Below are positions 2,396 through 45,634 of a stretch of DNA of 46,134 nt, piece after piece. A model generated the notes under the pieces. It had not been told where the DNA came from. It did no database searches and was given only the letters and a program-made list of their open reading frames with translations. Position numbers and translations under genes: made by a program. This stretch comes from a phage: the sequence record PZ379182.1. One strand, written 5' to 3'. The first letter of the stretch is position 1; every line of letters starts with the position of its first letter.

Positions 2396-3529
2396 TTACT
2401 TAAACATTTCAGGTCGGCAAGTGAATCGACCAACTTCACCGTACTCTGAGCTATAGATAATTACTGAGGCCTGACGATAAGAGCGATACCCTCCGTTTGC
2501 GCTGTACGCATCTTTAGCACCCAACTGACCGTGTGACTCATCAATTCCAAGATTACCCTCAGTAACCGTCTGATGATGATAATGGCCACTATGTGTATAA
2601 ACGTATTCAGCATTACCAAATGCTTTGCGATGGTCGCGCGCAAGAGTTGAAAGACGAGTGTCAGGCTTTCGCAATTCATGACCATGGCAGTAACCCAACA
2701 ATGTTTTACCAAACTCCGTCACATGAAGAGCGGCTGGTGAGGCATCAACATTTACACGAGGCTCATCCATGTAGAAGGCAGCCATTGCAGCTCGAAGCCA
2801 AATCATCCCAGAAAGGTCGTGGTTGCCTGGTATAATCTGAACCTCAACCTCTTTATGCTTGTCAAGCATCTTACTGACTGCGCGGCGAGTTGCACGAACA
2901 GCTACGTAGACAAGTTTATGATAACGGCTATCTTGATCAAGTACGTGCTTGCTGGTTGGAGTTACAGCTTCCATTCCATCCGAGTGAAGGAAGTCTCCAC
3001 CAATCAGTAATACGGCTTTTGATGAATTCGGGGCCTTAGCAACTGCATAATCAAAGTATTGGTTAAGCACTCGCTCTGCAATTTCTGTACTGTAGTTCTC
3101 CCCACACTCTGCATGGTGAGCCATTGCGCCAATATGCATATCAAACACGGGGTAGAGGCTCAAGGTGTCCTCATAGCTTGATTCACTGAGTGGTTTCGGA
3201 GTCTCTCGAGGGAGCTCATCTGTAAGCGCCTGAACAATCTGCTGAAGCATCTCTTCTTGTTTCTGTTCGTCGATGGAAGTTTTAACCCAGCGCAGCTTCT
3301 CATTACCATCCGCATCAATCATTGTTGAAGTGCCTTTAACAAGATAGCCATCAGGAACTAGCTTCTTGATGCCTTCATTACCATGCCCAACCCCACTCTT
3401 AGCCAACTTGCTACGACGAAGCTCAACGTTTCGAATGTTCATTCCGTACTTCTCTGCAATCGCCTTGTTAGTCAGGCCGTTTTTCAGTTCTTCGATCAAC
3501 TGCTCGTTGGTAATCTTTGCTGCTGCCAT
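2396..3529 (-). CDS. calcineurin-like metallophosphoesterase with N-terminal helix-turn-helix domain
   Basis: 377 aa; motifs DMH, GDFLH, GNHD, GH, GHYHH of the metallophosphoesterase superfamily; N-terminal HTH-like segment. Confidence 0.8.
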   Translation of the reverse strand: MAAAKITNEQLIEELKNGLTNKAIAEKYGMNIRNVELRRSKLAKSGVGHGNEGIKKLVPDGYLVKGTSTMIDADGNEKLRWVKTSIDEQKQEEMLQQIVQALTDELPRETPKPLSESSYEDTLSLYPVFDMHIGAMAHHAECGENYSTEIAERVLNQYFDYAVAKAPNSSKAVLLIGGDFLHSDGMEAVTPTSKHVLDQDSRYHKLVYVAVRATRRAVSKMLDKHKEVEVQIIPGNHDLSGMIWLRAAMAAFYMDEPRVNVDASPAALHVTEFGKTLLGYCHGHELRKPDTRLSTLARDHRKAFGNAEYVYTHSGHYHHQTVTEGNLGIDESHGQLGAKDAYSANGGYRSYRQASVIIYSSEYGEVGRFTCRPEMFK

Positions 3530-7743: not shown

Positions 7744-7808
7744 CACGAATTGATAAACAGTGGCGCTATACATTGTGTATAGTGCCTTTATTGTTTATGG
7801 AGGTAACT

Positions 7809-8735
7809 ATGAGTCACCATGATAAGAGCGAAGTGATAGCAAAAATGAAGGGAATGTGGGGCGAATTCTACTCATCGAACCTTGGATGGACAAAGGAGAA
7901 TCTCAGCAAGAAACATGGTCCGTGCCCTTACTGCTTTGGCAGGGATAGGTTTCGCTTCACTGATGAGTTAGGTCAGGAAAAGGGAAATGGCGCAGCAATA
8001 TGCAACCAGTGCGGAAATGATTCTGGTGTTGGCTGGGTTATGAAATGCTCGGGAATGAGTTATAGCGAAACAATAGATACGCTTGGTGATTGGCTGAATC
8101 TCGTTCCAGTAGAGGTTATATCAAAAGCAAACAAAAGAGCATCTCGTACATCACCATACAAAATTGGCGCCAAGATTGATCACGAAAGATGCTTAGAGAT
8201 AATGGAAAGGACGGAAAGAGTAGAATTAACTCCGCTCAGTACATACGAGGGTATCTATAGCGAATTTGGTTTTGATGTTGGCAGGACGAAATCAGGCGAA
8301 CTAATACACGCAGTACCGTGCTTTATGGCTTATAGTGACGGCATATCAGATGATATGTGCAATGTAATGTTTATCAATGAAGATGGAGATGTTAGCTATG
8401 CTGCAAAAGATTATACTCGCCAGTCTGTTTCTATTATTGGCACCTTTAAAGATGATGAGTACGCTTATCTGGTCGATAATTGGATTGATGGTGTTCGCGT
8501 TCATCTTGCTACTGGAAATCGCTGCGTGCTTGTTTGCCACTCCAGCTACAACATGGAAATGGTTGCTTATGCGCTTAGGAACTACAAGTTACGCGTCGCT
8601 TGTACTCGCAACTCTTTTGATTTACTTGCCGTTGCTGACGATCGCAATCTTGATATTGTAATTCCAAATGATGGTAATTTTTTCAAGTCAGGCATAAGAA
8701 AGAGAATATACAAGGCAAACGAATTACTAGACTAA
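7809..8735 (+). CDS. DNA primase (zinc-ribbon plus Toprim-like domain)
   Basis: Track ORF 7773..8735; ATG at 7809 preceded by GGAGG; zinc-binding CPYCFGRDRF...CNQCG followed by primase-like core. Confidence 0.7.
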   Translation: MSHHDKSEVIAKMKGMWGEFYSSNLGWTKENLSKKHGPCPYCFGRDRFRFTDELGQEKGNGAAICNQCGNDSGVGWVMKCSGMSYSETIDTLGDWLNLVPVEVISKANKRASRTSPYKIGAKIDHERCLEIMERTERVELTPLSTYEGIYSEFGFDVGRTKSGELIHAVPCFMAYSDGISDDMCNVMFINEDGDVSYAAKDYTRQSVSIIGTFKDDEYAYLVDNWIDGVRVHLATGNRCVLVCHSSYNMEMVAYALRNYKLRVACTRNSFDLLAVADDRNLDIVIPNDGNFFKSGIRKRIYKANELLD

Positions 8736-12539: not shown

Positions 12540-12606
12540 CTTTCGTTTCAGTGGGGAAATCATACCTCACCTTTTGATTTTGTCTTTAGCAATTAGTGCT
12601 ATTTTA
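12540..12606 (-). promoter_or_regulatory. intergenic cassette copy between exonuclease and ERF genes
   Basis: Minus strand AAATAGCACTAATTGCTAAAG ... CCCCACTGAAACGAAAGAGAG; motif contains the exonuclease stop codon. Confidence 0.6.
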
Positions 12607-15067: not shown

Positions 15068-15313
15068 ATGACTAACTTAATCAAACTTTCAATCATCGCA
15101 GCAGCAGCAATCATGATGGTGGGTTGTTCTTCTGCTCCGCGTCCTGACGGATGGTGTGCAACGCAAGCAAACGGCGTGTGCGTGGCTAAATGGGAAAATG
15201 GTGTGGTTGTACCGTCTGGTGAAGTTGATGTGCGATACGCTGGTATTGAGAGCAAGGCTGGCGGCGGTTACGGTGGCTCTGTTGCTGACCATGGGTCTAA
15301 GGAGTGGAAATAA
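15068..15313 (+). CDS. small lipoprotein, Cor-like superinfection-exclusion candidate
   Basis: 81 aa; signal peptide with lipobox MVGCSS; T1/phi80-type phages carry a small lipoprotein cor gene near tail genes. Confidence 0.5.
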
Positions 15314-16275
15314 TGCCTCAAGGAATATTGATTGACCTTAATGATGGAAGGCCACCTATGGAAATAACGGCAGGATTAAGAGCACCCGCTGTGACTGGCT
15401 CAATAAATACCAATGGACTTTCGACGCCAGCATCATCATGGGATTTTGGTTTAACCATGTCCCCAGGCTCAACAGCATTCTGCCTTCCAACAAAGGCTGT
15501 GCACGTTGACGCTTATGATGTTGTACCTGAAGTTTATTATATGAACGGGTTCCAGAAGGTAAATGACGGAACTGGCAGGATAAAACTTAGTAACTTCAAT
15601 GGCGCAAGAGGTCGTATAATTGACTTTGCTGGCAATTGCTTTGAGATACTAGCTGCTTCATCCTCTTCAAGCCCGGGCATACTTGTTGAGAACTCAACTG
15701 ACTTCCTGGCAATTTCAAGTAATTCGCGGTTAATGTCTGCGGCGTGGGTTGGTGGAATCCAAGTTAACGGCGCGGCTTCACTTCCAGTTAGCGGAGTTCC
15801 GTTTGGTAAGTGGGATAACCCAGGAGTTTCTCTGGAGAGCGACGGGAGCACAATTTGGTGCCGAAATATAAACTACACTGGTACAGATGACGTGGCGGCA
15901 AGCACTTACGTGCAACTGGTGATATTCAGAAACGAACCGCCGATAGCTGGACCCGGGCTTACAATGTCTAACAGCTTGGGCCAGATTGTCTTTTCCAGCG
16001 TTAGGCGACCGTTTGTGCTTGGTGGCTTTATACAAATGACTAACGGTTTCCAGTCAATAAATGGTGGATTCTTCCCACTACTTAGGTGTGGAGCTACAAC
16101 AAGGGTTACTGGAGGGTATAACAACTTAAGATACAAAGGCATATGCATGTCTGGCGGCGCCGTAAGGGCCGTTCCAGGGACTGTAATAGGTAACTACTCA
16201 ACGCAGACGGGAGCCCAATTCCCATTCGACACAAACATATCAATGGCTCTACCATTCATACCAAACTTCTACTAA
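15313..16275 (+). CDS. hypothetical Gly/Ser/Thr-rich beta-type protein (possible tail- or receptor-associated)
   Basis: Track ORF 15304..16275 begins at GTG; ATG at 15313 overlaps the cor-like stop and follows AAGGAG; composition resembles fiber proteins. Confidence 0.45.
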   Translation: MPQGILIDLNDGRPPMEITAGLRAPAVTGSINTNGLSTPASSWDFGLTMSPGSTAFCLPTKAVHVDAYDVVPEVYYMNGFQKVNDGTGRIKLSNFNGARGRIIDFAGNCFEILAASSSSSPGILVENSTDFLAISSNSRLMSAAWVGGIQVNGAASLPVSGVPFGKWDNPGVSLESDGSTIWCRNINYTGTDDVAASTYVQLVIFRNEPPIAGPGLTMSNSLGQIVFSSVRRPFVLGGFIQMTNGFQSINGGFFPLLRCGATTRVTGGYNNLRYKGICMSGGAVRAVPGTVIGNYSTQTGAQFPFDTNISMALPFIPNFY

Positions 16276-19300: not shown

Positions 19301-19731
19301 TTAATCAGACGAGGCCAAAACAGCTTAACCCTAATCGCTGATAGCTGGGTGTTATTAACAGCAATGATGTAAGGAGTTGAGTTTTTAATCTCCCTGTTCA
19401 CTTGCACTTCCGAGTTAGCACCCTCTAGCCCGGCAATGTAATCCTGACTCTGTGTGCCAGGGCGAAACTCTGCCGTTACACCCTCGTAGTTGTATGTGCC
19501 ATTCTGGTTCTGTACAGGAACGTCAGCAAGGTAAAGGTCCTTTAGGGAGAATGAGCTATCAACCTCACCATCAGAAACAGCTAGCAAAACCTTAACCTTG
19601 TTTACGGATATCAGGTTATCAGGCTGCTCTACAGGTTGGTGCTGCTTTGGCTGTCCGCCCTTACTTCCATAAATCTTAATTTCTTCCGCCATATCACATA
19701 GCTCCGCATTTGTTTTGACCATTTGTGCCAT
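16306..19731 (-). CDS. central tail fiber / host specificity protein, lambda J-like
   Basis: 1141 aa; segment YSGTWNGTFKMAYSNNPAWVLYDLVTNQRYGL closely parallels lambda J; last gene of an M-L-K-I-J-like series. Confidence 0.9.
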   Translation of the reverse strand: MAQMVKTNAELCDMAEEIKIYGSKGGQPKQHQPVEQPDNLISVNKVKVLLAVSDGEVDSSFSLKDLYLADVPVQNQNGTYNYEGVTAEFRPGTQSQDYIAGLEGANSEVQVNREIKNSTPYIIAVNNTQLSAIRVKLFWPRLINQESNGDLNGTTCEYAIDLSVDGATYTEYTRGVANGKTTSGYDRSIRVNLPAEFSSALVRVRKITAYSESSTLVNDMQITTYQEVIDAKFRYPLTALVYVEFSSDLFPNGIPTISIKKKWKLIRVPTNYNPETRTYSGTWNGTFKMAYSNNPAWVLYDLVTNQRYGLDQRELGITIDKWGLYEAAQFCDQMVPDGKGGVEPRYLCDVVIQQKVEAYQVIRDICSIFRGLTFYDGEQIGIVVDKPRQPSYVFTNDNVVDGLFNRTFGSDKSLYTVANVQFDDVENSYQQDVEPVFELEATRRFGYNPVDLTAIGCTRRSEANRRGRWLLKTNIRSETISFTTGLEGMIPMIGEVIAVNDQAWSSNYTLNLSGRIESVSGLQVFVPFKIDATAGDRILINKPDGMPEYRTIASVSEDGMTLQLNTAFSFTPQPDTVFAIDKENLALQQYVVTGIQKADSDGDDAFGYSITAVEYDPNKYDEIDYGVNIQDRPTSIVEPDTLLAPENVQVSSYSKVVQGLSVETMVITWDKVQYAKTYTVQWRKENGNWINVPRTASTEVDIEGIYAGIYQVRVRAVSDTENVSAWSDIVSVSLTGKIGTPSEPTVITASDDEIFGIRVKWGFPENSADTSYTELQQVADNGDGTYSPENASLLTLVPYPGYEYWHTTLPAGKVIWYRARLIDKIGNVSPWTDFVRGMASDDVSSIIGDIKVDIENSDGFKYLQQNAIESNGAIQAQAESIIENALANDGDVRRMTKENGKRKAEFVQAVNLIADEERARVEALTQLKAQIDDEIVASLTRIDTALAEETQARTTADTALSARLGENEAALNEKLDTYVTADSIGAQYGIKLGLTYNGVEYNSGMSMELTGSGGNVRSQFIFDANRFAISNGISSGSGQWSLPFVVEGNQVFIQSAVIQDGSITNAKIGNRIQSNNYVAGSQGWAIDKSGSAELNNATVRGSLYASNGNFAFNGTNNTVQINNNGITVNLPNGGRVVVGVW

Positions 19732-19741
19732 TCTACACTAA

Positions 19742-19768
19742 ATAAAAAACCCGCACTAGGCGGGTCTT
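19742..19768 (-). terminator. putative intrinsic terminator/attenuator
   Basis: Minus strand CCCGCCTAGTGCGGG followed by TTTTTTATT. Confidence 0.5.
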
Positions 19769-19771
19769 AAT

Positions 19772-20347
19772 TTAAGCGATATCTTCTGAGTAACTCCCAG
19801 CACTAAATACAGAGCCGCCAACACTTCGATAACCGTATGGCAAACATATTGGGTATCCAGCAGCTACAGTGTTAACAGCCGACCCGAATGCGTATGAAGC
19901 CCTGTTTTGCGCAGACTCCTGCGTCTTTAATCCAGTTGCTTGTGGGGAAAGTAACTGAGCTACACCGCCAGCAGCTAGTGAGATACCAGCACCAAGAACA
20001 GCGGTTGCAATACCACCAGTAAGGAAGAAGCTAGCACCAATGAGCGCCGCACCTAGTACTGTCTGGAATAACCCTCCGCTTTTTCTTCCTTGAGGTATTG
20101 GCATAATACGAATCTCACCAACTGCCTTAAAATCCTTGATACGATGTTCATTAAGGTTCTTCCCGTCAGCAAATATTGCGAACCTAGTCCTTTGTCCAGC
20201 ATGGCTTTGCATGAACTCTTTAAATGCTGGAATGTTTACCGATAATGCTCGAAGTGCTTCCGGTACAGACTCCACGCACAACTCATGGACTTTCCCGTAC
20301 CTTCTGCCAAGTGACAAGCCCAGCTTAACCTTAATCAGTCTCTGCAT
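19772..20347 (-). CDS. tail assembly protein, lambda I-like
   Basis: Track ORF 19772..20416; probable start at about 20347 (MQRLIKVKLG); Gly/Ala-rich hydrophobic C-terminal region; position after the K-like gene. Confidence 0.55.
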   Translation of the reverse strand: MQRLIKVKLGLSLGRRYGKVHELCVESVPEALRALSVNIPAFKEFMQSHAGQRTRFAIFADGKNLNEHRIKDFKAVGEIRIMPIPQGRKSGGLFQTVLGAALIGASFFLTGGIATAVLGAGISLAAGGVAQLLSPQATGLKTQESAQNRASYAFGSAVNTVAAGYPICLPYGYRSVGGSVFSAGSYSEDIA

Positions 20348-22272: not shown

Positions 22273-25245
22273 TTAGTTGTAACCGCGCAAGAACTGATAC
22301 GCTCTGCCACCCTGTTGGAATGATTTGCTGATTTCCTCAGCCACGATAACCTTAACTCCAGATTCTATCGCCTTAGCATCATTTCCGCCACCGATTCCAG
22401 AGTTTACGTTAACCGTCACACCACCAACACTGACATTAGTACCGCCGACAACCCCACCATTAGCATAACCAGATGGCCCACCAACAGCACCTCCATTTGC
22501 ATAACCGCGCATCAGCTTGTACAGATTCTTAACACCAATCCTGCTTGTAGCCTCTTTTGTGAATACAAACTCACCACGGTGAACAGTCCCAGCAGGTTGA
22601 TATTTCCCGCCATCACCAGTATAACCTCCGCCAGCAAAACCAAGCGCACTACCAATTGAACCAATAGCGCCGCCAGTACCACCAAAACTACTCAGACTTG
22701 ACTCAATGGCCTTAACAATTAAGAGTTGAGTCGCAATCCTGGCAATCTGTTTCAGGATCTCAACGGTAAAACTCCTGAAGTCTGCCGTGCCAGTTGTTAC
22801 AAGGCTGGTGATCTGCTCGGTAATTCCGGTAAAGACGGAAGTGGTCAATTCACCAGCGATAGAGAATGCATCTGTCGCGCTCTCTGCCCAATTAGCGAAG
22901 GATGATTGCACACCAGCAAGCCAGTTTTCACGTAGCGCATCCTCTTGAGCATAGAAATTACGCCTGGCTTCTAGTAATGCCTGAAAATCAGTATCATCTA
23001 CAGAACCACCTTTGTTTACCTGATTGGATTGAAGTGCCTGAAGCTCTTTTGCTCTTTGCTTCTCCCTGTCAGATAAATTAGCAGCAAGTGAAAAATTATT
23101 TGCTTCATTTGTAATCTGCACAGTCTTCTTAAGGTTGTCATCAAGTAACTTGTTTGACCTCTCCTGAAGCACAATCTGGTCACCAAGTTCAGCCTTCTGT
23201 TTAGCCTGTTCAAGAATGATATTCTTCTGCGCAAGTAGCTTAGCCTGTGATTTTGTAAGCGTACCATCCGCTTGTCTTTGTTCAAGTATTGCAAACTTCG
23301 CTTCTTCCTGGAATAACTGCTTTCTTTCATTGCTTATTACATCATTTATCGTTCTGTGCTCTTGTAAGACCTTTAACTGAGCCTGAAGTGCAAGAACGCC
23401 AGATTCATAAGATAAAGTTAAATCCCTTTCTTCTTTTACAGCCTTTTTCCTCTCACTCCTTGCTTTCTTTATCGCATCATACTCATCGGCAAGAGCCTTC
23501 TTCCTTGCTGCAAACTCCTTATCGGTTGATGCATTATTGCCGCTAAGGTTGGTGTTATTGTTGTTCTCGACATAACCAAGCTCACCCTTCCTGATTCTCG
23601 CATCTCGCTCAGCTATGCTTTTTGCTAACTCCTCATTTTGCTTCTTAGCTGCATCAACAATCTTTTGCTGCTCAGCGATTGCTTCATTGCCTAAATCGCC
23701 AAGTCCAGGTATTGACTGAAGTGTCTTGGTTGCTGCTATTGCAAACTCGCCCAATAGGATATCGCCGGAGTTTATTAACGACCTTATCTGCTCAATAGTC
23801 CCAGCAACAACGTCAGTTATTAAGTTAAGCGCCCCAAGCGTCCTTTTGCTTATATCATCCCAAATCTCACTTACAAACTTCCTGAAGCTATTCCATGCGC
23901 TCTCAAGAGGGTTAAGGCTTAGTGCTACGTCTGCTAGCCTGTTTTCCATAACGTTAGCGAATAGCTCAGTAGCTGCGGTTACAGCCTCTGTTTCTCCAGC
24001 CGTCTTCCTGATATTCTCAATGTATTTCAATTGCCCAGACTGAAGGAAGTTGAACTGCTTATCGAGTGCAATCAGACCTTGAATTGGGTCCTTTGTAATC
24101 TGATCAAAGTATCCAAGAATAGTTTTCGAGTCTGTTGATGTTACAGTTGCCCATTGTGCTGTCGCCTTGGTTATCTTATCTATCTGCGTAAGAGTCAGAT
24201 TACCGTTTGCTACCAGGCTGTTAGCTATCTCCTGGATAAGTCCGCGCGTGGCTAGTGTTGAACTCTCAATTCCATCAACAACCTGATTTATCTGCGCTGT
24301 CGACGTGATAGTTGAGTTGCCAACCAATGTTATCGTTGATGCTAGTCCGCGAGTGTTCTTGTCAGCCTGATAAGCAGCAACACCAAGAGCGCCGAGGGCC
24401 AAGCCCAAAGTCCCAACAACTGCCGTTAATGGGTTAATGGCTGCCAGTGCGAACCTTGCGGTGTTAGCAATACCACCAAAGCTATCCTTAATCTGCCCAC
24501 CCTGCTGAATTGCAATGAGCCAGATTGGGATGCCGCCAGCAAGAGATGTTCCGATATCTGTAATCTGAGCTGGTAGCTGTCGTATTGCTTGCTTGTACTG
24601 ACCGGCGCTTAAACCTGACTTAACAAAAGCGGAGCTTTGCTTCTGTAACTGAACAGCAGATGCCTCGGCGGCCTTGCCAATCCTGTCGATAATCGGTGCC
24701 GCTTGGTCACTAACTCCGAGTTGAGCAGCCTTAAGTTGAAGTAGTTCAGTCCTTGTAAGGCTTGCTGCATTCGCCTCGTTCTCAAGAGATTGAATGAACT
24801 TTTGCGCGGCTGCTGTTGCCTTTTCTTTATCTATTGATGCCTGTAGTGCAGCTCGCCCTTCCTCGCTAAGAGCTGCTTTAGACCTGTTTAGCTTATTTAT
24901 TTGAGTTTCAATAACAGAGCCAAGCCGGAAGAACTCATCATCAGGAACTATTCCAGATTCAAACGCCTTGTCTAATTCAGTTGCTGCTTTCTGAAGCTTC
25001 TGGAATTTAGCGGCAGTTGGGTCTATGACTTGTTGAAGTGATGCGAAAGATTTGCGCTGCTCCTCAAGCTGCCTTGCGGTGTCCCTTGCTTGAGTCTTGG
25101 CTACAAGTTCGGCGTTGACGAAGCTATTAATGCCTGTTGCAGCTTGCTCGTTTGCTTGCCTGAATTTCTGTAATGATTGTGTACCCTTATCGACCTGAGC
25201 GACGTCGACGGCTAGCGTGATACCAGCAATTTCGTTAGTTGCCAT
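22273..25245 (-). CDS. tail tape measure protein
   Basis: Track ORF 22273..25275; ATG at about 25245 preceded by GGAGGA; about 990 aa, coiled-coil-rich with Gly-rich C-terminal repeats. Confidence 0.85.
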   Translation of the reverse strand: MATNEIAGITLAVDVAQVDKGTQSLQKFRQANEQAATGINSFVNAELVAKTQARDTARQLEEQRKSFASLQQVIDPTAAKFQKLQKAATELDKAFESGIVPDDEFFRLGSVIETQINKLNRSKAALSEEGRAALQASIDKEKATAAAQKFIQSLENEANAASLTRTELLQLKAAQLGVSDQAAPIIDRIGKAAEASAVQLQKQSSAFVKSGLSAGQYKQAIRQLPAQITDIGTSLAGGIPIWLIAIQQGGQIKDSFGGIANTARFALAAINPLTAVVGTLGLALGALGVAAYQADKNTRGLASTITLVGNSTITSTAQINQVVDGIESSTLATRGLIQEIANSLVANGNLTLTQIDKITKATAQWATVTSTDSKTILGYFDQITKDPIQGLIALDKQFNFLQSGQLKYIENIRKTAGETEAVTAATELFANVMENRLADVALSLNPLESAWNSFRKFVSEIWDDISKRTLGALNLITDVVAGTIEQIRSLINSGDILLGEFAIAATKTLQSIPGLGDLGNEAIAEQQKIVDAAKKQNEELAKSIAERDARIRKGELGYVENNNNTNLSGNNASTDKEFAARKKALADEYDAIKKARSERKKAVKEERDLTLSYESGVLALQAQLKVLQEHRTINDVISNERKQLFQEEAKFAILEQRQADGTLTKSQAKLLAQKNIILEQAKQKAELGDQIVLQERSNKLLDDNLKKTVQITNEANNFSLAANLSDREKQRAKELQALQSNQVNKGGSVDDTDFQALLEARRNFYAQEDALRENWLAGVQSSFANWAESATDAFSIAGELTTSVFTGITEQITSLVTTGTADFRSFTVEILKQIARIATQLLIVKAIESSLSSFGGTGGAIGSIGSALGFAGGGYTGDGGKYQPAGTVHRGEFVFTKEATSRIGVKNLYKLMRGYANGGAVGGPSGYANGGVVGGTNVSVGGVTVNVNSGIGGGNDAKAIESGVKVIVAEEISKSFQQGGRAYQFLRGYN

Positions 25246-25275
25246 TTTTCCTCCACTAGTAGCTAATAGCACCAA

Positions 25276-25840
25276 AAGTCAAAAACAATAAATCTCAGTA
25301 TGTATAATACATTAACACTTCGACTTTGGGGGTAAAATGTTTAAATATTTGTTTGATTATGATGGAATGAAATTGATATGGAAAAACCCAACATCACCTA
25401 GATTCACAAAGGGCGACGTTGCGGGAACTAAGCATAAGAGAGGATACATTCAAGTTTGCTTTAATAGGAAGCTATACCTTGCTCATAGGATAATATGGGA
25501 GATGCATCATGGCGAGATACCTGAAGGGATGCAGATTGACCATGTAAATCAGGACAAATCAGATAACAGGATTTCAAACCTAAGGCTAGTCACGCAGCAG
25601 GAAAACAAAAAGAACAAACCAAAGCAAGTAAGAAACTCTAGCGGAGTTAATGGTGTATCTTGGAATAAATCAAATGGAAAATGGCAGGTAAGGATAGGTG
25701 TAGATGGAAAAGATGTTCATCTTGGGTATTTTGATAACATTTCAGACGCTAAAAAAGCAAGATTCGATGCTGACTTTAGATTTAAATACCATGAAAATCA
25801 CGGTAACAAAAAGCGCCAGTAGGCGCTTTATTTTTTATCT
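25276..25840 (+). mobile_element. free-standing homing endonuclease cassette (promoter-like sequence, HNH-AP2 gene, terminator-like hairpin) inserted in the tail module
   Basis: TATAAT at about 25310 and GGGGGTAAAATG RBS upstream; AGCGCC-AGTA-GGCGCT hairpin plus T-run at the 3' end; opposite strand to every flanking gene. Confidence 0.6.
25337..25822 (+). CDS. HNH homing endonuclease with AP2 DNA-binding domain
   Basis: 161 aa; HNH motif region IDHVNQDKSDNRISNLRLVTQQEN and AP2-like GVSWNKSNGKWQVRIGVDGKDVHLGYF; antisense to the tail operon. Confidence 0.8.
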   Translation: MFKYLFDYDGMKLIWKNPTSPRFTKGDVAGTKHKRGYIQVCFNRKLYLAHRIIWEMHHGEIPEGMQIDHVNQDKSDNRISNLRLVTQQENKKNKPKQVRNSSGVNGVSWNKSNGKWQVRIGVDGKDVHLGYFDNISDAKKARFDADFRFKYHENHGNKKRQ

Positions 25841-26127
25841 CTCATCATATCAAGGGCTTTAGCTTCCAGCACCCTGATATCGTTAAGTACCATTTGTCTA
25901 TCACTGACTTCGTAAACATCAAAAAGAAAATTCAAGCAGTTGTAATCAAGACCTGTGGCGCCGCATGTACCAACCCTCCACTGAGTAGACATGGCGCAGT
26001 ACAAATCCCAACTTTGCATCATATCCTCATCGAAGTATAACTCTTCAGGCTCCTCACCGTCATAGTCTGATCTTTTCATTCCAATCGCTTCGAGTTCAGC
26101 GTCAGTTGGTGGTGATTGGTACTGCAA
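25828..26127 (-). CDS. tail assembly chaperone C-terminal extension (lambda T-like), probably made as a G-T fusion by -1 frameshift
   Basis: Track ORF starts at TTG; its frame is open back across the end of the upstream chaperone gene and is the -1 frame; a GTAAAAATT run lies at the junction. Confidence 0.45.
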   Translation of the reverse strand: MQYQSPPTDAELEAIGMKRSDYDGEEPEELYFDEDMMQSWDLYCAMSTQWRVGTCGATGLDYNCLNFLFDVYEVSDRQMVLNDIRVLEAKALDMMRDKK

Positions 26128-26141
26128 AAATACAGCGCGCC

Positions 26142-26456
26142 TTAAATTTTTACCCTTTGTCCCGCTAACGCCTTCATGTATGAATCCATTAATGACGGAA
26201 CTGCGGCAGGGAAAAGGTTCGCGAACTCTTCTACGTTCTCATCGTTAAATGGTTCTTCTAAATCCCAATCAGAGCAGATTTCGTTAATCAATTCTTTGGT
26301 GCTGAAGTTCTCACGGTTAAGAATCTCCTGCAACTCAGATGATTTCTTGTGCTTAACTGTTAGCACTACTTCTGCATCATCGCCATTAGCTAACTGGAAC
26401 TTAACTGGAAGTTTAAAGTCAGGCAGCGCCTTAAGTGAAAGTTTAAATTTTGCCAT
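26142..26456 (-). CDS. tail assembly chaperone (lambda G-like)
   Basis: Track ORF 26142..26495; ATG at about 26456 preceded by AGGAGA; acidic protein between major tail and tape measure genes. Confidence 0.6.
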   Translation of the reverse strand: MAKFKLSLKALPDFKLPVKFQLANGDDAEVVLTVKHKKSSELQEILNRENFSTKELINEICSDWDLEEPFNDENVEEFANLFPAAVPSLMDSYMKALAGQRVKI

Positions 26457-26505
26457 CTCGTTATCTCCTTTGTTTGTGTTTGTTGATTGTAGCATAAAGT
26501 GCTAT

Positions 26506-26530
26506 CAATAAAAAACCCTCCGAAGAGGGT
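26506..26530 (-). terminator. intrinsic terminator after the major tail protein gene
   Basis: Minus strand CCCTC-TTCG-GAGGG followed by TTTTTTATT. Confidence 0.7.
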
Positions 26531-26535
26531 TAATT

Positions 26536-27195
26536 TTATACCAGTTCAGAAGCTACAGAACTCAGCCTACCACGGATAGATACTGCGATGGATACCGTTT
26601 CGATTTCGTTGACACCAATGCTAGGGGTGTCGTTGAAAGCGATAGTGCCAGACTGAAGGCGCATCTCACTAGCGCGAGGTACGAACAGACGAATAGCAAC
26701 AACAGTACCAGCTTCGTCATAGTTACGCAGAATCGGATATACCGGGTTGGTGTATTCGTGCGCAAACGTGTAGGTGTTGGTTACCGCAGACTTATAAGTT
26801 GGAATCTGCTGCTCACGATCATCAGATAAACACTGGAAGTTAACGAACTGCTGTTCGCCGCCATCAGTGGATACGTCCTGAACACAAGGAACTTCAAACC
26901 AAGTAAGAATCTTAACAACTTCACCAGTTAAGCCAGCTGGGAACTTAGTGGTGTTGGAGGTATCAATACCTTCAACAGTTACGGTTGAACCAGATACCTC
27001 GGTAACGCGAACTTGCTTATCAGCCAGCAGGGTCGAAGCTGAGCTGGTAAATAGCAGGTAATCACCGCGTGCAATATCAGCAACGCTGGACAAAGTTAAA
27101 ACAGGAGTAACAGCATTGGAAATTGCAGTTACGTCGATAGCAGCTCCGCGAGAGCCTTCTACGAACACCTGGGTGCCGTTTGATAAGTGAGCCAT
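26536..27195 (-). CDS. major tail protein
   Basis: 219 aa; position just upstream of the G/T chaperones, followed by a strong terminator. Confidence 0.7.
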   Translation of the reverse strand: MAHLSNGTQVFVEGSRGAAIDVTAISNAVTPVLTLSSVADIARGDYLLFTSSASTLLADKQVRVTEVSGSTVTVEGIDTSNTTKFPAGLTGEVVKILTWFEVPCVQDVSTDGGEQQFVNFQCLSDDREQQIPTYKSAVTNTYTFAHEYTNPVYPILRNYDEAGTVVAIRLFVPRASEMRLQSGTIAFNDTPSIGVNEIETVSIAVSIRGRLSSVASELV

Positions 27196-29088: not shown

Positions 29089-29149
29089 TTTTGTCTCCTT
29101 TTATTAGTTGATGGTTGATTATAACCCAACAAATCCATTAGGTACAGAC

Positions 29150-29174
29150 GTAAAAAAGCCCTCATAAGAGGGCG
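29150..29174 (-). terminator. intrinsic terminator after the major capsid gene
   Basis: Minus strand GCCCTC-TTAT-GAGGGC followed by TTTTTTAC. Confidence 0.7.
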
Positions 29175-29179
29175 ATTTA

Positions 29180-34329: not shown

Positions 34330-34386
34330 GCGTGAAGTAACTATAAGCCATCCTTGGCGGCGCGTCTTTAGCAAAACGTGCTATTT
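34330..34386 (-). promoter_or_regulatory. intergenic cassette copy downstream of terL
   Basis: Minus strand AAATAGCACGTTTTGCTAAAG, GCCAAGGATGGC hairpin, TTATAGTTACTTCACGCAAACGAGAGGAG. Confidence 0.55.
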
Positions 34387-36000
34387 GATGCCAGCGAGGC
34401 GCATCATCCTCGATTTAGGGTCTTCTGCAATGTTCAGTACCAGGTTGACAGCCATTGTCAAACAGTCTATCTGGTCATCGTGAACATGTGAATCATCTGC
34501 CGTGAATGCCGCAATCTCCGTTAGCAAGCCATTAAGCCAAGTAGCAGACTCCGGAAGGATTACGTTACCAGCTTTAATCTGCGGCAATGCACTCATTACG
34601 CGAGTCAGCTTATCGTTATCAGGAACGTACGGCTCGATAGGCGTTCGCATAACCCTTCCGGCTGATTGAATCAGGCCAATACCAGAGGCTTTCTTCTCGA
34701 TGATGATTTTACGAAGGATACCATCTATCTGATTGGATGCCCTAGCCATCTTCTCGAAATCCAATAACTCAGCCTCGAGCTCAGGAGCTTCAAATTTACC
34801 GCGCCGCTGGTCAAGCAGATAAATCTTCCCATCCTTATAACCCCATAGCTGCATGACGCTAAAGTCGCTGTAACTTTTGGTTGTCATCGCAGTATCAAGG
34901 ACCATAAACCTGTAATCGTACTTAGCTGGCGGTCGCAGAGTGTCGCTAATGCGTTGAAGCCAGTCTACGTTAATCAGGTTGCCGCCAAGTGCTACTGGTT
35001 CTTGCTGATACTGGCTAAGGAATGTATAGCTATCAGAATCCCACATTGCAACTAGGTCGTGAACAGATTCCTTGCCAGGGAAATAGCTATAGTACCTAAC
35101 ACCATCACGCTCAATATATTCGCTTGATAGAACGTCATCAATGAATTGCTGCTTAATCCAGTCAGGGAGCGTGTCGACGTAATTCTCAGTTACGAGCGCC
35201 GGTATCTTAATCAAGTCGAAGCTAATACCCATACCGCCATTCATCATGAACCACGTACTATCATTCACATGAAGGCGCTGTTGGATAGAGATAATCGGCG
35301 TCGCCTTGCCTTTTACCGAGCTAGCCCTACGAGAACGTATGGTGTTCTTTAGCATCACATGGTTGTTGGCACGGAATACAGCCGAAAGCATATCTGCAGG
35401 TTTGTCAAAATCATCTAACAGTACTGCGCCACTATATGAATCTGTTATATACCCACCCCTTGCGCCGGTAATCTGACCGCCAGCAGCTTTTGAGATTGAT
35501 TCAAACCGGACCTTTCCAGACTCATCAAGGACCTGTAACTCATCGTCCTTGCACGTGCCGAACTTGCAAGGGAATAACTCCTGGAACTCAACAGACTTAA
35601 TCAGGTCGCGCACTCGCTTGGAGTTGCGCTTAACCAGTGAGTCAGCAAATGAGATGTTGAGGTTCCTTACCTTCTTTAGCTTCACCATTGAGTATGCTGG
35701 GAAGTGAATTGAGGCTATCTCTGTTTTTCCGCTACCTGGTGCTATGTTAATGATAGTGTCCTTGCGCTCACCTGCGATAATCTCGTCAATGATTCTGCAA
35801 AGGTATTTATGATGCCAGTTTGGGATGTACCGCTCTCCCTGAGTTAGCTGGAACCACACCCGCAAGAATCCCTCGAAGCTATGAGTGGATATCGCCTTAA
35901 CCGCCATCTTTTCTGCTGTCGTCATTTCCTCCCAAACTAAATTAGCCATAATTTCACCAATCCAACCATCACGCCAATTAAGAATCCAGTTGTGAAGCAT
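34381..36000 (-). CDS. terminase large subunit
   Basis: 539 aa; ATPase Walker A-like INIAPGSGKTE, C-terminal nuclease region; follows terS. Confidence 0.9.
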   Translation of the reverse strand: MLHNWILNWRDGWIGEIMANLVWEEMTTAEKMAVKAISTHSFEGFLRVWFQLTQGERYIPNWHHKYLCRIIDEIIAGERKDTIINIAPGSGKTEIASIHFPAYSMVKLKKVRNLNISFADSLVKRNSKRVRDLIKSVEFQELFPCKFGTCKDDELQVLDESGKVRFESISKAAGGQITGARGGYITDSYSGAVLLDDFDKPADMLSAVFRANNHVMLKNTIRSRRASSVKGKATPIISIQQRLHVNDSTWFMMNGGMGISFDLIKIPALVTENYVDTLPDWIKQQFIDDVLSSEYIERDGVRYYSYFPGKESVHDLVAMWDSDSYTFLSQYQQEPVALGGNLINVDWLQRISDTLRPPAKYDYRFMVLDTAMTTKSYSDFSVMQLWGYKDGKIYLLDQRRGKFEAPELEAELLDFEKMARASNQIDGILRKIIIEKKASGIGLIQSAGRVMRTPIEPYVPDNDKLTRVMSALPQIKAGNVILPESATWLNGLLTEIAAFTADDSHVHDDQIDCLTMAVNLVLNIAEDPKSRMMRLAGIK

Positions 36001-36067
36001 GTAGCCGCTATCATGTAATACGCCAATAATGCCTTAATCAATTTTATCATACCAACCCGCCATGTTC

Positions 36068-36592
36068 TTACAGTTTGCTAATCACAGACTCCAGCGCTTC
36101 CTTCATCGTATCGACGTCGTTAGCTGAAGAGTTGTTGCTGATGGTAATCTCCTGCGGCTTGTCGATTCCAAGCTCTTTGGAAATCATGCCAGGGTTAATG
36201 ATGCCAGATGCTGCAAGCTGGTATTTCTGCTCGCGAATCACGGAATCAATGAACGCAATCACCTCATCATAACCAGCCGACTTCCTCCATTTCTCGATAG
36301 CGCTATGGGTGACACCGCAGTAAAGGCAGAATCCGGTTAGCGTGAAGACTCGTGGTTTGTGCACCAGGCTCTCTTTTACCACACCCTGGAAGCTGGCTGT
36401 CTCGATTGCCTTGATTGCCTGGTCCTCAGCCCATGAGAAGTATTTCACGGCGAATTCAAATAGCTGTTCGGGTGTCATGCTTCGGTTTTTGGCTAGCGTT
36501 GTAATGTCTGAGTACTTTTTATTGTACATGGCTTTAAAGTTGCCAGAGCGGACCTTTTCTTGCGCCTGACTGGTGAAGTTTTCGTCTTTCAT
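36068..36592 (-). CDS. terminase small subunit
   Basis: 174 aa; AAGGAGG RBS; immediately upstream of terL. Confidence 0.7.
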   Translation of the reverse strand: MKDENFTSQAQEKVRSGNFKAMYNKKYSDITTLAKNRSMTPEQLFEFAVKYFSWAEDQAIKAIETASFQGVVKESLVHKPRVFTLTGFCLYCGVTHSAIEKWRKSAGYDEVIAFIDSVIREQKYQLAASGIINPGMISKELGIDKPQEITISNNSSANDVDTMKEALESVISKL

Positions 36593-37129: not shown

Positions 37130-37205
37130 TGGTGTTCCGCACTGGACTCGAACCAGTAACTAAGACTTAGGAGGTCTTTGCGTTATCCTGTTACGCCAGC
37201 AGAAC
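37130..37205 (-). tRNA. tRNA-Arg (anticodon CCU, reads AGG)
   Basis: 76 nt folded by eye: acceptor GTTCTGC/GCGGAAC (one G-U), D-arm GCGT/ACGC, anticodon stem AAGAC/GTCTT with loop CUCCUAA, T-arm ACTGG-TTCGAGT-CCAGT, encoded CCA. Confidence 0.8.
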
Positions 37206-37591: not shown

Positions 37592-38390
37592 CAAAACTCC
37601 TCAGTTATAAGCATCTTGCCACAATCTTTGCACTCGTAGAATGCACATGCTTTCACCAACTAATAGACTTGGTTTTGTTGACTCGTGGTACTTGCATCGT
37701 TTAGCGCTTTAATGTCAAAATCGTTAATGATTTGATGTGAACACGTAAACGTAGCGATGCTTGTGATTGATTTCTTTATTATTCATAAAGGCTATTCCCA
37801 TTCTGATCATGGCCTACGCGACATTTTCTATAACCAGCAATCCACACAAATTTGTCTCGAGCAATTAGTGTCGAAACCGGCCCCCACACTTGAGTAATCA
37901 GCGCTGCCACTACCTTATCATCTTTCTTCTTTGCGCCCAAGTTTGCCGTATTCGTCATTCAGCTTATCAGCCTGTCGCTTGACTGCGTTAAAGTATGCGT
38001 CGTCTAATCCGAACATTATTCATCATCCTCCTCGCATGCTATGAGACTATCGCAATTATCACGGCATCGCAAATGCCTTTGGTGCTTTAGCTATTCGTGG
38101 CTGTAAATCAAGTCAGCAATGACTTAACAAATTCGATCTGGAGTAACCATCTCATTCGCTTCGTATGGCTCTATGCAATCTCTTCGTTGTATGAATGAGT
38201 TGAACGTTATCATGGCAAATCCGATGCGCTGTCATGCAATTACGCAATTCGTGCGTATGCCATTTCTTATCTTCACGCTCTTTCCATAGATTTCAGTTAG
38301 CTCGTAAGTACATTCATGGCATCTTCGCCAGTCTTAGCCTCATCCATGCATCCGTGCAGGCCCACTGGCTTGGTGTTTCGTAGTTATCCA

Positions 38391-38516
38391 TTAGTAAACA
38401 AGAGCCTCGTGGTTTGCTATGTAAAGCTCCTCATCGTGCTTGTTTTTAATGAAGTACCCATTGCCATCTTCGCTAGGCTCTGCATAGAATACGTCGCCAT
38501 GCTTTAAGCGCGCCAT
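38391..38516 (-). CDS. hypothetical small protein (41 aa)
   Basis: Read by eye: GGTGAGGA RBS then MARLKHGDVFYAEPSEDGNGYFIKNKHDEELYIANHEALVY; below track cut-off. Confidence 0.3.
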   Translation of the reverse strand: MARLKHGDVFYAEPSEDGNGYFIKNKHDEELYIANHEALVY

Positions 38517-38716: not shown

Positions 38717-39139
38717 TCAGATTTTGTTAATTTGCTCAAACTTCTCAAACCAGAAAACAACTGGATCCTCCACTATGGAGATGAGGCCGAACCGCTCTGC
38801 CGTGCGAAAATTCATGCTGCTCTTACGCCCGCGAGCTACTTGAAGAGACACCTGTTCCCTGAACATTTCAAGGGAATAGCAAGTTTTCATGAGGTTGCAT
38901 GGAGCACATGCAGGGTAAAGGTTTTCCATTCGATCAGCTTGTGGTCGATTAAACTCACCTGTCGCCTTCAGCTTGAAAGTTCCTTTCTCCGCTGCCTTCA
39001 TGCATACCTCAGATTTACGTAGCACCGGTTCAACATGGTCAGCATGCCAGCCTTTCTCAGGTAGTTCACACCCACAATAAGCGCAGCGACCACCGAACTT
39101 GCCCTTCAACTCTTCCCTTTGAGATTTGCTTAATTTCAT
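38717..39139 (-). CDS. HNH endonuclease (zinc-ribbon type)
   Basis: 140 aa; CAYCGC...H..H...CAPCN motif arrangement. Confidence 0.8.
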   Translation of the reverse strand: MKLSKSQREELKGKFGGRCAYCGCELPEKGWHADHVEPVLRKSEVCMKAAEKGTFKLKATGEFNRPQADRMENLYPACAPCNLMKTCYSLEMFREQVSLQVARGRKSSMNFRTAERFGLISIVEDPVVFWFEKFEQINKI

Positions 39140-39149
39140 TTTATAAACC

Positions 39150-44050: not shown

Positions 44051-45634
44051 ATGTTTGATTTCAATGAAGATAAACTATCTGTTGAGCAAGTTATGGCGAT
44101 CGCTGCCAATGACAACCTACCACCGCTTCGCGTGGCTATTAATGCCAATGGCTATCGACAGTCTCAATCGTTCTGGAAAGCACCTGTCGAGATTGATACA
44201 GGTAATGATAAGTATCCAGTAATCTCACTCGGTAATGATATTGATGTTGTTGGTAAGCTATCGGCTAATATCGCTCGCTCGGTTCAGTTCCCTGAGTCGT
44301 CAGCTTACATGCACTTTCTTGGTTGTGTTTCTGCTGCAATGCTTGGGCGTTTTACTGTCGAGTATCATGGAACCCAACAGCCAACATCTTTGTACGTGGT
44401 AACAAGTCAGCCGCCTTCAACTGGTAAATCAGCCATTAACTCGCTATCAATTGCGCCGATGATTGCTGAGACTGAGCGGTTGAATGAAGTACGTAAACGT
44501 GATCGAAAAAAGATTATGGCTAAACTGTCCGCTCTGGCTAAAGAGATGAAGCAGGAGAAATCACCTTCTGAAATGGCTTCACTTTTTGAGGAGAAGGAGG
44601 ATTTAGAGGAGAAGCTCGAGAAGCTATGCGATATAGTATTCCCTGTCTCCGATACTACTCCGGAAGGTCTTGCGCGAATCAACAATCGCCAGGGTAATTT
44701 TGCGGTAATCTCTGATGAGGCTACTAGCGTCAACTCACTGTTAGGCATGACTTACGGTGATGGCTCGAAGAAAACGAACAGCGAGCTCGTGCTGAAAGCA
44801 TGGGATGCAGGTAATGTGTCAATTGCCCGTGCGAACGCAGAAAATAACATGAGCTTTGTGGCTATGGGATGCATCTCCGTAATTGCTCAGGATGAAACAA
44901 TCAATGCCATTATGAATGCTGGTGCGCGTGGTATTGGTGTATCTGAGCGTTTCCTTCTGGTGCGTGAAAAATCATTTCTTGGCGACCGTGTATTTGTTGA
45001 TGAAAATGGTGATTCAACCTATGAGGCTATTGATGGCGGCCTGAAAGCAGACTATTTCCGTCTTGTTCATGAGATTATGAATGAAGTTGAAGTGAAACTT
45101 ACTGTAAGCGCGTCATCAATGCGTTACCTTAACCGCGCTCGTCAAGAGATGGAGCCTCATCTTGGTGATGGTGGCAAGTATTCTCACACAATGTTGCGCG
45201 GTGCTCTTGGTAAGTTTGATAAGCAAGCAATCCGCATCGCTTCTGTTCTGCACGTAATTCGTAACTGGTTCTCACCAGCCGGATCCAGCCCTCAAAAGTC
45301 AAGAGAGATTGAACTGGATACAATGCAGGAAGCGGTTATGATTTTCAACGAACTAAGCAAGACTTATTTATCATCCGCTAGTGCTGCTGGTCATGCTGGT
45401 GACAATGCCGAGATGAACAAGCTGGTTGATATCCTGATTAAGCAGGGCAAGAATGGTAAAGGTGTTGTTGGTGTTCGCTCGTTGTATGAGGCTGCACGCA
45501 AGGTTAAACCTTTTGAAGCTCAGGCTGGAATTATGACTCGCATTAAGGACCACTTGATTCCTATGCTTGATGAGAAAAACTACACATGCCTGATTGGTGA
45601 TAAAATTTACATTAATCCACGATTGCTGGGGTAA
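44051..45634 (+). CDS. P-loop NTPase (Walker A/B), possible replication ATPase/helicase
   Basis: Track ORF 44036..45634; ATG at 44051 follows GGAGAG; Walker A-like SQPPSTGKSA and Walker B-like FAVISDE. Confidence 0.55.
   Translation: MFDFNEDKLSVEQVMAIAANDNLPPLRVAINANGYRQSQSFWKAPVEIDTGNDKYPVISLGNDIDVVGKLSANIARSVQFPESSAYMHFLGCVSAAMLGRFTVEYHGTQQPTSLYVVTSQPPSTGKSAINSLSIAPMIAETERLNEVRKRDRKKIMAKLSALAKEMKQEKSPSEMASLFEEKEDLEEKLEKLCDIVFPVSDTTPEGLARINNRQGNFAVISDEATSVNSLLGMTYGDGSKKTNSELVLKAWDAGNVSIARANAENNMSFVAMGCISVIAQDETINAIMNAGARGIGVSERFLLVREKSFLGDRVFVDENGDSTYEAIDGGLKADYFRLVHEIMNEVEVKLTVSASSMRYLNRARQEMEPHLGDGGKYSHTMLRGALGKFDKQAIRIASVLHVIRNWFSPAGSSPQKSREIELDTMQEAVMIFNELSKTYLSSASAAGHAGDNAEMNKLVDILIKQGKNGKGVVGVRSLYEAARKVKPFEAQAGIMTRIKDHLIPMLDEKNYTCLIGDKIYINPRLLG

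Follow-up and report, generated by a model that had tools for sequence, protein, structure and literature searches.

A predicted free-standing homing endonuclease gene of the HNH-AP2 type, in antisense orientation between the tape measure and tail assembly chaperone genes of a T1-like coliphage

Introduction

In the phage genome recorded as PZ379182.1, a single gene between the tape measure gene and the tail assembly chaperone genes runs against the direction of the late operon that surrounds it. What this gene encodes, how it came to occupy this junction, and whether it serves the phage or its own spread are the questions addressed here, using the entire 46,134-nucleotide stretch of DNA that was analysed, referred to below as the window. 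The passage of PMC10448857 that cites Magnani et al. 2004 presents the combination of HNH and AP2 domains as a recognised homing endonuclease architecture, occurring in phages, cyanobacteria and protists, and HNH-AP2 genes are concentrated next to essential genes, those for tape measure and chaperone proteins among them (Barth et al. 2023, PMC10448857). Free-standing HNH genes with precise insertion junctions lie in the structural operons of mycobacteriophages (PMC3706429), and the coliphage genomes of the BASEL collection are infested with endonuclease genes, with associated gene conversion (PMC8594841).

Results

Gene neighbourhood and strand

Between positions 16306 and 36592 the endonuclease gene is the sole gene on the plus strand, every other plausible gene lying on the minus strand. 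One flank is formed by the tape measure gene (Pfam TMP_2 and Tape_meas_lam_C; minus strand), whose ORF spans 22273-25275, with a likely ATG start at 25245-25243 (MATNEIAG) and a ribosome-binding site, GGAGG, at 25254-25250 on the same strand, directly after which the insert starts. The other flank comprises the 'T' part of the tail assembly chaperone (25828-26127; DUF1799, Pfam E=8.3e-15), the 'G'-type tail assembly chaperone (26142-26495; Phage_TAC_4, Pfam E=1.2e-31) and the tail tube gene (26536-27195), all three on the minus strand. The T reading frame is the -1 frame of the upstream chaperone gene, and a -1 shift at A AAA A produces an open 222-aa fusion with no internal stop; the chaperone and DUF1799 ORFs are therefore the usual G/GT tail-assembly chaperone pair. 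The frameshift site itself, at 26139-26156 on the minus strand, carries the variant AGGGTAAAAATTTAAGGC (A AAA ATT TAA), and the -1 frame is open in the window. These neighbours and strands agree with the first-pass annotation, which had placed a plus-strand gene within a minus-strand operon, flanked by the tape measure and chaperone genes.

Domain architecture of the endonuclease

The endonuclease ORF occupies positions 25337-25822 on the plus strand, stop codon included, begins with ATG and encodes 161 aa. Its nuclease part, a predicted beta-beta-alpha-metal core at residues 47-91 (25475-25609, plus strand), matches Pfam HNH_3 with an E-value of 5.5e-24 and 84 bits against a cut-off of 24.8, in agreement with the 161-aa ORF and HNH motif reported earlier. 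The protein falls in the PHROGs family PHROG 99, 'HNH endonuclease', with E=1e-67. The C-terminal part, a predicted AP2-type DNA-binding domain of three strands followed by a helix, covers residues ~103-148 (25643-25780, plus strand); searched with the single sequence, Pfam AP2 (PF00847) gives a sub-threshold match over residues 103-141 (20.8 bits against a cut-off of 33.3, E=4.7e-4), and some of the homologues carry a precomputed PF00847 match.

The family profile, built from 62 aligned homologues found in a search of 5.8 billion proteins, matches the intron-encoded nuclease I-HmuI (PDB 1u3e) over residues 1-106 with E=7.8e-9, and over residues ~98-150 it matches the solved AP2 domains of WRI1 (7wq5, E=2.4e-5), TEM1 (7et4, E=4.9e-3) and a Plasmodium AP2 protein (3igm, E=0.11). 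An AlphaFold model built on the homologue alignment reached a mean pLDDT of 87.8. In the modelled HNH region, strands at 65-69 and 82-86 and a helix at 87-91, with pLDDT of ~90, form a beta-beta-alpha fold, while the modelled AP2 region consists of a three-stranded antiparallel sheet (107-110, 115-122, 125-132) and one helix (135-148). When the model was compared with the PDB using Foldseek, I-HmuI (1u3e_M) ranked first, with a probability of 1.00 and an rmsd of 2.7 A over 74 columns, at an E-value of only 8e-3, and was followed by a run of AP2 domains (7et5, 3igm, 1gcc and 7wq5). Among these, AtERF1 (1gcc) superposes on the model with an rmsd of 1.4 A over 50 columns and a TM-score of 0.66 normalised to the target.

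The family-profile alignment pairs the proposed catalytic residues D68, H69, N81 and N90 with D74, H75, N87 and N96 of I-HmuI. Across the 62 homologues D68, N81 and N90 are invariant, and H69 is conserved in at least 90%. In I-HmuI the histidine is the general base, with the aspartate adjacent to it and the asparagines in structural and metal-binding roles. Because the family-profile matches, the model with its Foldseek matches and the conservation of D68, H69, N81 and N90 all point the same way, the two-domain (HNH plus AP2) reading of the predicted protein is sound, and the nuclease looks catalytically intact as judged by its conserved residues. The earlier proposal of an AP2 domain joined to the HNH motif is thus borne out by the family profile and the fold matches, the single-sequence Pfam score remaining below threshold.

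An exact-protein look-up returned no identical protein on record, and the nearest relative among the 5.8 billion proteins is 58-59% identical. The window holds no paralogue of the endonuclease.

The insertion point and its empty counterparts

BLAST comparison with the phages TR2, ES and IMM-001 places the boundaries of shared sequence at 25255 and 25829. The window segments 24002-25255 and 25829-26480 align to segments of the relatives that lie just 28 bp apart, and the 573 bp at 25256-25828 stand in place of the relatives' ~28-bp spacer, ...CCATAATAAAAAAGCCACCCCGAAGGATGGCTATTT.... The inserted DNA, read on the plus strand and absent from close relatives, accordingly measures ~555-573 bp, extending over 25256-25828, or over 25256-25809 if the hairpin at its end is counted as resident. 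The range given by the first-pass annotation, 25276-25840, came close; the empty sites shift it to 25256-25828. The gene and its ~80-bp leader occupy the spacer, normally of 28-40 bp, between the T stop codon and the tape measure ribosome-binding site.

All seven close relatives from the GenBank phage collection (TR2, TR3, CY1_Cui-2023, Rao1, ES, AN_ECEAS and IMM-001) have an empty site; they belong to the Drexlerviridae, subfamily Braunvirinae, TR2 being a Christensenvirus, and their flanks are ~88% identical to those of the window. The site is likewise empty in 39 of 39 IMG/VR loci and in two Logan loci. The IMG/VR loci were found with the T-protein alignment as query, the single T protein as query having given none; in them 28-40 bp lie between the T stop codon and the tape measure start, with one locus at 167 bp, and an HNH gene stands there in none. 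For the GenBank survey, an artificial empty-site query was made by joining the two flanks, and junction-spanning records were sampled evenly down 161 hits; every junction-spanning phage record sampled gave a single-piece alignment, ~30 bp longer than the empty-site query. Altogether, the junction is occupied in just 2 of ~90 surveyed. The comparison of this junction in relatives that had been proposed as a check on mobility therefore finds the gene absent from the seven relatives, the 41 metagenomic loci and all sampled GenBank junctions.

The insert has a GC content of 36.8%, below the 44.1% of the window. Neither direct nor terminal inverted repeats of the kind that form transposon-like ends flank it, and a search of the insert against the Rfam intron families gave no match. 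Given the intergenic site, the lack of an Rfam intron match and the lack of flanking repeats, the endonuclease gene stands free of any intron, intein or transposon.

The junction hairpin and the expression signals

At its 3' end the endonuclease gene, opposite to the late operon, reads into a bidirectional GC hairpin, AAAGCGCC-AGTA-GGCGCTTT, at 25810-25829 (both strands), with an 8 bp stem containing five GC pairs and a folding energy of -14 kcal/mol (z=-4.25 on the plus strand and z=-3.5 on the minus strand). Most of the last four codons of the endonuclease (KKRQ) fall within the left arm; their final base and the TAG stop codon are in the loop. On the minus strand the hairpin follows the T stop codon (TAA, 25828-25830), and the last two lysine codons of the T gene, together with that stop codon, are the antisense of the hairpin's plus-strand T-run.

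A GC hairpin with a T-run stands between the T stop codon and the tape measure ribosome-binding site in every T1-like locus examined, and because of this counterpart the hairpin is interpreted as a resident element of the junction, probably acting as an attenuator of the late operon or as a stabiliser of its 3' end. The terminator-like hairpin that the first-pass annotation had ascribed to the cassette is thus real, but it is resident at T1-like junctions rather than private to the gene. Its AGCGCC type is found, nearly the same as in the window (AAAGCGCC-loop-GGCGCTTTT), in six loci (L033, L036, L039, L041, L047 and L050). In the second occupied junction, on the Logan contig L007 described below, the hairpin is the same as the window's and is called as a terminator on both strands. 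The hairpin of the window's close relatives is different, GCCATCC-TTCG-GGGTGGC, and the nearest empty relatives of L007 carry AACCCGC-TTCG-GCGGGTT; since the empty relatives on both sides bear other hairpins, the AGCGCC type seems to travel with the endonuclease gene. A pattern scan for the hairpin in IMG/VR gave no match. The one match to the pattern in the metagenomes, L015, was discarded as an unrelated bacterial contig and a chance match to a generic terminator.

Upstream of the gene, a TATAAT hexamer at 25303-25308 (plus strand), 29 nt before the ATG, is a candidate -10 element, and a Shine-Dalgarno-like run, GGGGG, lies at 25328-25332 (plus strand), 4 nt before the ATG. The promoter scan called no -35/-10 pair on the plus strand. 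The window holds 30 copies of this hexamer against 31.5 expected, so that a lone TATAAT is not above chance, and no equivalent was called in L007, the hexamer not being conserved there. The claim of a promoter is therefore weak: the TATAAT noticed in the first-pass annotation is present, but it occurs at chance frequency, has no -35 partner and is not conserved in the second occupied locus.

A second occupied junction and relatives at other sites

L007, a 944-bp Logan contig, carries at the same junction and in the same orientation a 161-aa homologue (P0001) that is 58% identical to the window protein, its best protein match, with a matching N-terminus. The layout consists of the tape measure start (ATGGCAACAAATGA) on the opposite strand, a ~90-nt leader, the endonuclease ORF, the same hairpin and, 5 nt further on, the end of the T gene, whose product is 71% identical to that of the window. 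The L007 insert matched none of the phage collection records. The tape measure start, tape measure ribosome-binding site and chaperone 3' end of L007 resemble those of the Rtp-like locus L016, an assignment of its backbone made from ~60 nt of this short contig, while the backbone of the window resembles TR2. This homologue at the identical junction, together with the empty relatives, favours the earlier suggestion of a mobile element at the tape measure/chaperone junction.

Other close homologues occupy other sites, namely upstream of the portal gene, near the terminase, beside capsid and protease genes and in the recombination module, and the next-best homologues, P0002-P0006, all lie at other sites in the contexts inspected. 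Four HNH genes are present in TR2, and the corresponding sites in the window are all empty. This sporadic, site-specific distribution of HNH genes matches what homing endonuclease genes show.

Divergence and shared bases in the T-gene flank

The two flanks of the insert differ in their similarity to relatives. On the tape measure side, identity is 92-98% right up to the tape measure ribosome-binding site. On the T side, the stretch from 25829 to ~26230, covering the T gene and ~85 bp at the end of the chaperone gene, is 55-86% identical to relatives, after which identity rises to 88-100%; the relatives match one another at 91-98% over this stretch. Across the whole genome the window is 82% identical to TR2 at 78% coverage, with a 10th-percentile 400-bp window of 69%, and the T patch stands at 77%. 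The ~400-bp patch was initially a candidate for a clear co-conversion tract and was downgraded, such divergence being common genome-wide against TR2; because 77% lies well inside that spread, the patch is at most consistent with co-conversion, and ordinary mosaic recombination could be its source.

The bases shared by the two occupied loci were also compared. Of the 157 columns at which at least 85% of the 44 empty loci agree, both occupied loci differ at nine, against 1.95 expected if they were independent (Fisher p=6e-6, a value that comes from two occupied loci, one of them the very short L007, and ignores kinship). Both carry the same base at eight of the nine deviating columns, and at three the shared state is seen in none of the 44 empty loci. 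From these alignments, it thus appears that the endonuclease gene and a portion of the T gene descend from one source and now stand in two unlike backbones, and the shared derived bases fit joint movement of gene and flank. Searching for homologues of the T protein gave just seven proteins, none closer than 81%, and the two contexts checked are empty sites; neither this search nor that with the endonuclease found a donor of the T segment or of the endonuclease gene.

The programmed frameshift site as a candidate target

In most of the 44 empty loci, the three close relatives examined among them, the frameshift site has the canonical slippery heptamer A AAA AAC followed by TAA (GTAAAAAACTAAA), and one subgroup carries GCAAAGGTCTAAAG. 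The form GTAAAAATTTAAGGCGCGC occurs in the window and L007 and in 0 of the 44 empty loci, and IMG/VR contains no exact match to the variant. Being almost invariant across T1-like phages and needed for translation, GTAAAAAACTAAA would make an ideal homing target, and it is conceivable, though doubtful, that the enzyme recognises this programmed -1 frameshift site of the G/GT genes, ~320 bp away, rather than the spacer that it occupies. The variant GTAAAAATTTAAGG, found only in the two endonuclease carriers, could then be a cleavage-resistant allele travelling with the gene and, if this is true, might also shift the G:GT ratio. As a specific mark of the cleavage site the variant was set aside, the shared derived bases being scattered along T and not confined to it. 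Hitch-hiking would account equally well for the variant and for the other shared T bases.

Discussion

Proposed homing of the gene

The gene is probably a free-standing HNH-AP2 homing endonuclease gene, inserted antisense in a T1-like coliphage (Drexlerviridae, Braunvirinae) and predicted to home. The first-pass annotation had named it as such, and both the domains and the pattern of presence and absence support that identification. In the proposed mechanism, an I-HmuI-like DNA-contacting N-terminal sheet and the HNH nuclease would form the first module of the enzyme, with the C-terminal AP2 domain responsible for sequence recognition. The gene would be transcribed from a weak sigma-70-type promoter of its own, earlier than the late operon or independently of it, and late-operon transcripts across the gene would be antisense to it. 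During co-infection with a gene-free relative, the enzyme would cut or nick the empty allele at or near the junction, and the break would be repaired by recombination against the carrier genome, bringing in the endonuclease gene with a portion of the neighbouring T gene; a recombinase and an exonuclease are encoded by this phage group itself. The carrier genome would be protected, its target being altered by the insertion and the co-transferred flank. I-HmuI is a nickase that nicks one strand; for this reason double-strand cleavage cannot be assumed, and conversion induced by a nick is as likely as double-strand-break repair.

Alternative explanations

The same observations can be arranged around a passive passenger or decaying homing gene, which would have arrived with the T segment by mosaic recombination between co-infecting T1-like phages and lost its capacity for self-spread. 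Mosaic identity is the rule across the genome, ranging from 60% to 92% against TR2, the T patch is no genome-wide outlier, and an occupancy of two junctions in ~90 is low for an actively invading element, with no close copy found elsewhere. Against it, the ORF is intact and of equal length in both occupied loci despite 58% protein identity, the catalytic residues are conserved, and the left edge of the foreign DNA falls exactly at the cassette edge, at the tape measure ribosome-binding site. We consider this explanation unlikely.

Domestication would make the protein a nuclease or DNA-binding protein in the service of the phage, either degrading or excluding competing phage or host DNA, or tuning tape measure expression through the AP2 domain and antisense transcription. 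Recruitment of endonuclease DNA-binding domains, AP2 among them, as regulators has happened repeatedly (PMC10448857), and the insertion parts the conserved hairpin from the tape measure ribosome-binding site by ~555 nt, setting an antisense gene in the late transcript. Nevertheless, all close relatives manage without the gene, the nuclease residues are kept, and nothing points to a regulatory target, which leaves domestication very improbable. HNH proteins that aid terminases exist in siphophages, HK97 gp74 being an example, and in TR2 an HNH gene separates the two terminase genes, but a packaging role of this kind is scarcely credible for a gene that lies ~9-10 kb from the terminase genes (34381-36592) on the opposite strand, encodes a protein of the HNH_3/I-HmuI family with an AP2 domain, and is absent from all close relatives, which package normally.

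Comparison with known systems

The predicted homing endonuclease shares with I-HmuI of Bacillus phage SPO1 (PDB 1u3e), its top match by sequence profile as well as by structure, the N-terminal sheet and the HNH_3 core, with the Asp-His pair and both asparagines aligned. The two differ in setting and in their C-terminal parts, I-HmuI being encoded within a group I intron, whereas the window protein is free-standing and ends in an AP2 domain. The C-terminal DNA-binding part of I-HmuI is helical, with a helix-turn-helix, in the published structure.

Free-standing endonuclease genes of phage T4 and of mycobacteriophages spread by cleavage near, and not necessarily at, their insertion site, and flanking markers are co-converted. 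In T4, the seg genes code for GIY-YIG enzymes, and the products of the mob genes are HNH enzymes whose DNA-binding modules are of other kinds. Like the window gene, the seg and mob genes and the endonuclease genes of mycobacteriophages are intergenic and polymorphic in presence and absence between close relatives, but homing of the T4 genes is experimentally proven, while the window gene is known from sequence alone.

Within the Drexlerviridae, PHROG 99 and related HNH genes, found for example in BEK6, ESCO41, MezzoGao and Webervirus phages, belong to the same family at 44-57% full-length identity, and many are annotated as 'AP2 domain protein' or 'homing endonuclease'. These genes occupy other sites, mostly in the same orientation as their neighbours, and none of those examined lies at the T/tape measure junction. 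The 'IPA-HNH' genes of vibriophage ICP1, which count among the HNH-AP2 homing endonuclease genes, are free-standing beside essential genes, as in the window; their HNH domains are too divergent for Pfam HNH_3 (PMC10448857), whereas the window protein matches that family strongly.

Conclusion

Among mobile elements of its kind, which is well known, the gene is unremarkable, and it leaves the knowledge of homing endonucleases unchanged. Several of its features merit attention nonetheless: the insertion site is rare, no relative exceeds 59% identity, the hairpin of the operon is borrowed for both stop codon and terminator, and the frameshift site is altered in the carriers only. With no protein relative closer than 59%, a new DNA specificity is possible. 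The exact insertion point can be placed between the resident junction hairpin and the tape measure ribosome-binding site. The insert marks a putative gene-conversion hotspot, and the T gene is for that reason better kept out of the phylogeny of these phages. With its defined empty sites, the locus offers a clean example of how endonuclease genes turn over in a coliphage family that has been heavily sampled.

Junction between the chaperone and tape-measure genes

All T1-like phages examined carry a GC-rich hairpin followed by a T-run between the stop codon of T, the DUF1799 part of the G/GT tail assembly chaperone, and the ribosome-binding site of the tape-measure gene. The hairpin lies at 25810-25829 in the window and at about 2790-2840 in the T1-like metagenomic loci with an empty junction (L016-L054), and the length of the junction spacer is kept tightly at 28-40 bp in the T1-like loci examined. 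The hairpin may be a conserved attenuator or a stabiliser of RNA 3' ends, setting the ratio of chaperone to tape measure. In one IMG/VR locus, L053, the distance from the T stop to the matched tape-measure start is apparently ~167 bp as against 28-40 bp (about 2790-2970), in a stretch where the alignment is weak; this gap may be an artefact of the alignment or reflect another small insert.

A weak promoter-like site, TTTCCA-17-CATAAT, with 9 of 12 matches, occurs at 25356-25384 on the minus strand, within the 5' end of the HNH-AP2 endonuclease gene and directed at the tape-measure gene. The regional count of such sites equals the chance expectation.

Slippery heptamer and tail gene annotation

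Both loci carrying the endonuclease gene, namely the window (26139-26156, minus strand) and the short Logan metagenomic contig L007 (about 890-910), have A AAA ATT as the slippery heptamer of G/GT. Most of the 44 empty loci have A AAA AAC, which is replaced by GCAAAGGTCTAAAG in a subgroup comprising L026-L029 and L032. The gap separating the tail tube gene from the chaperone gene is ~320 bp longer in the relatives than in the window (window 26480-26535; 2936-3258 in a relative's record, L001), and the additional DNA encodes an uncharacterised 82-aa ORF (phrog_22925), which the window lacks.

GenBank labels for the tail region differ between the relatives' records. The T ORF is named variously 'TfmS', 'minor tail protein' and 'tail length tape measure protein', and the tail tube gene 'major capsid protein' or 'tail assembly protein'. 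Some records that match tail genes of T1-like coliphages bear the names of Campylobacter phages (A110b, A136 and others) or of Pseudomonas phage PsgS01F, suggesting that the host was given wrongly or that the records are contaminated.

Other HNH genes and their turnover

The window contains a second HNH ORF of 140 aa at 38717-39139 on the minus strand (phrog_2118, E=7e-55; Pfam HNH, 23 bits), unrelated to the HNH-AP2 gene. Comparison with the close relative TR2 shows no counterpart there of the stretch housing this ORF (window ~38739-39148), which is probably a further endonuclease gene insertion. Both phages have a tRNA-Arg gene, that of the window (anticodon CCT) lying at 37130-37205 on the minus strand.

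An HNH homologue with 40% identity is present in the IMG/VR phage L026 at 969-1406, ~1.1-1.5 kb upstream of the T gene, within the tail-gene region yet at a different site from the window's endonuclease gene. TR2 itself carries four annotated HNH endonuclease genes (15129-15653, 19365-19844, 37811-38407 and 44072-44578 in its record, L056), located before the primase gene, in the recombinase/exonuclease gap, adjoining the major capsid gene and in the gap between the terminase subunits. The matching sites in the window (~7803-7979, 12557-12604, 29123-29178 and 35939-36069) are all empty, indicating rapid turnover of endonuclease gene content in this group.
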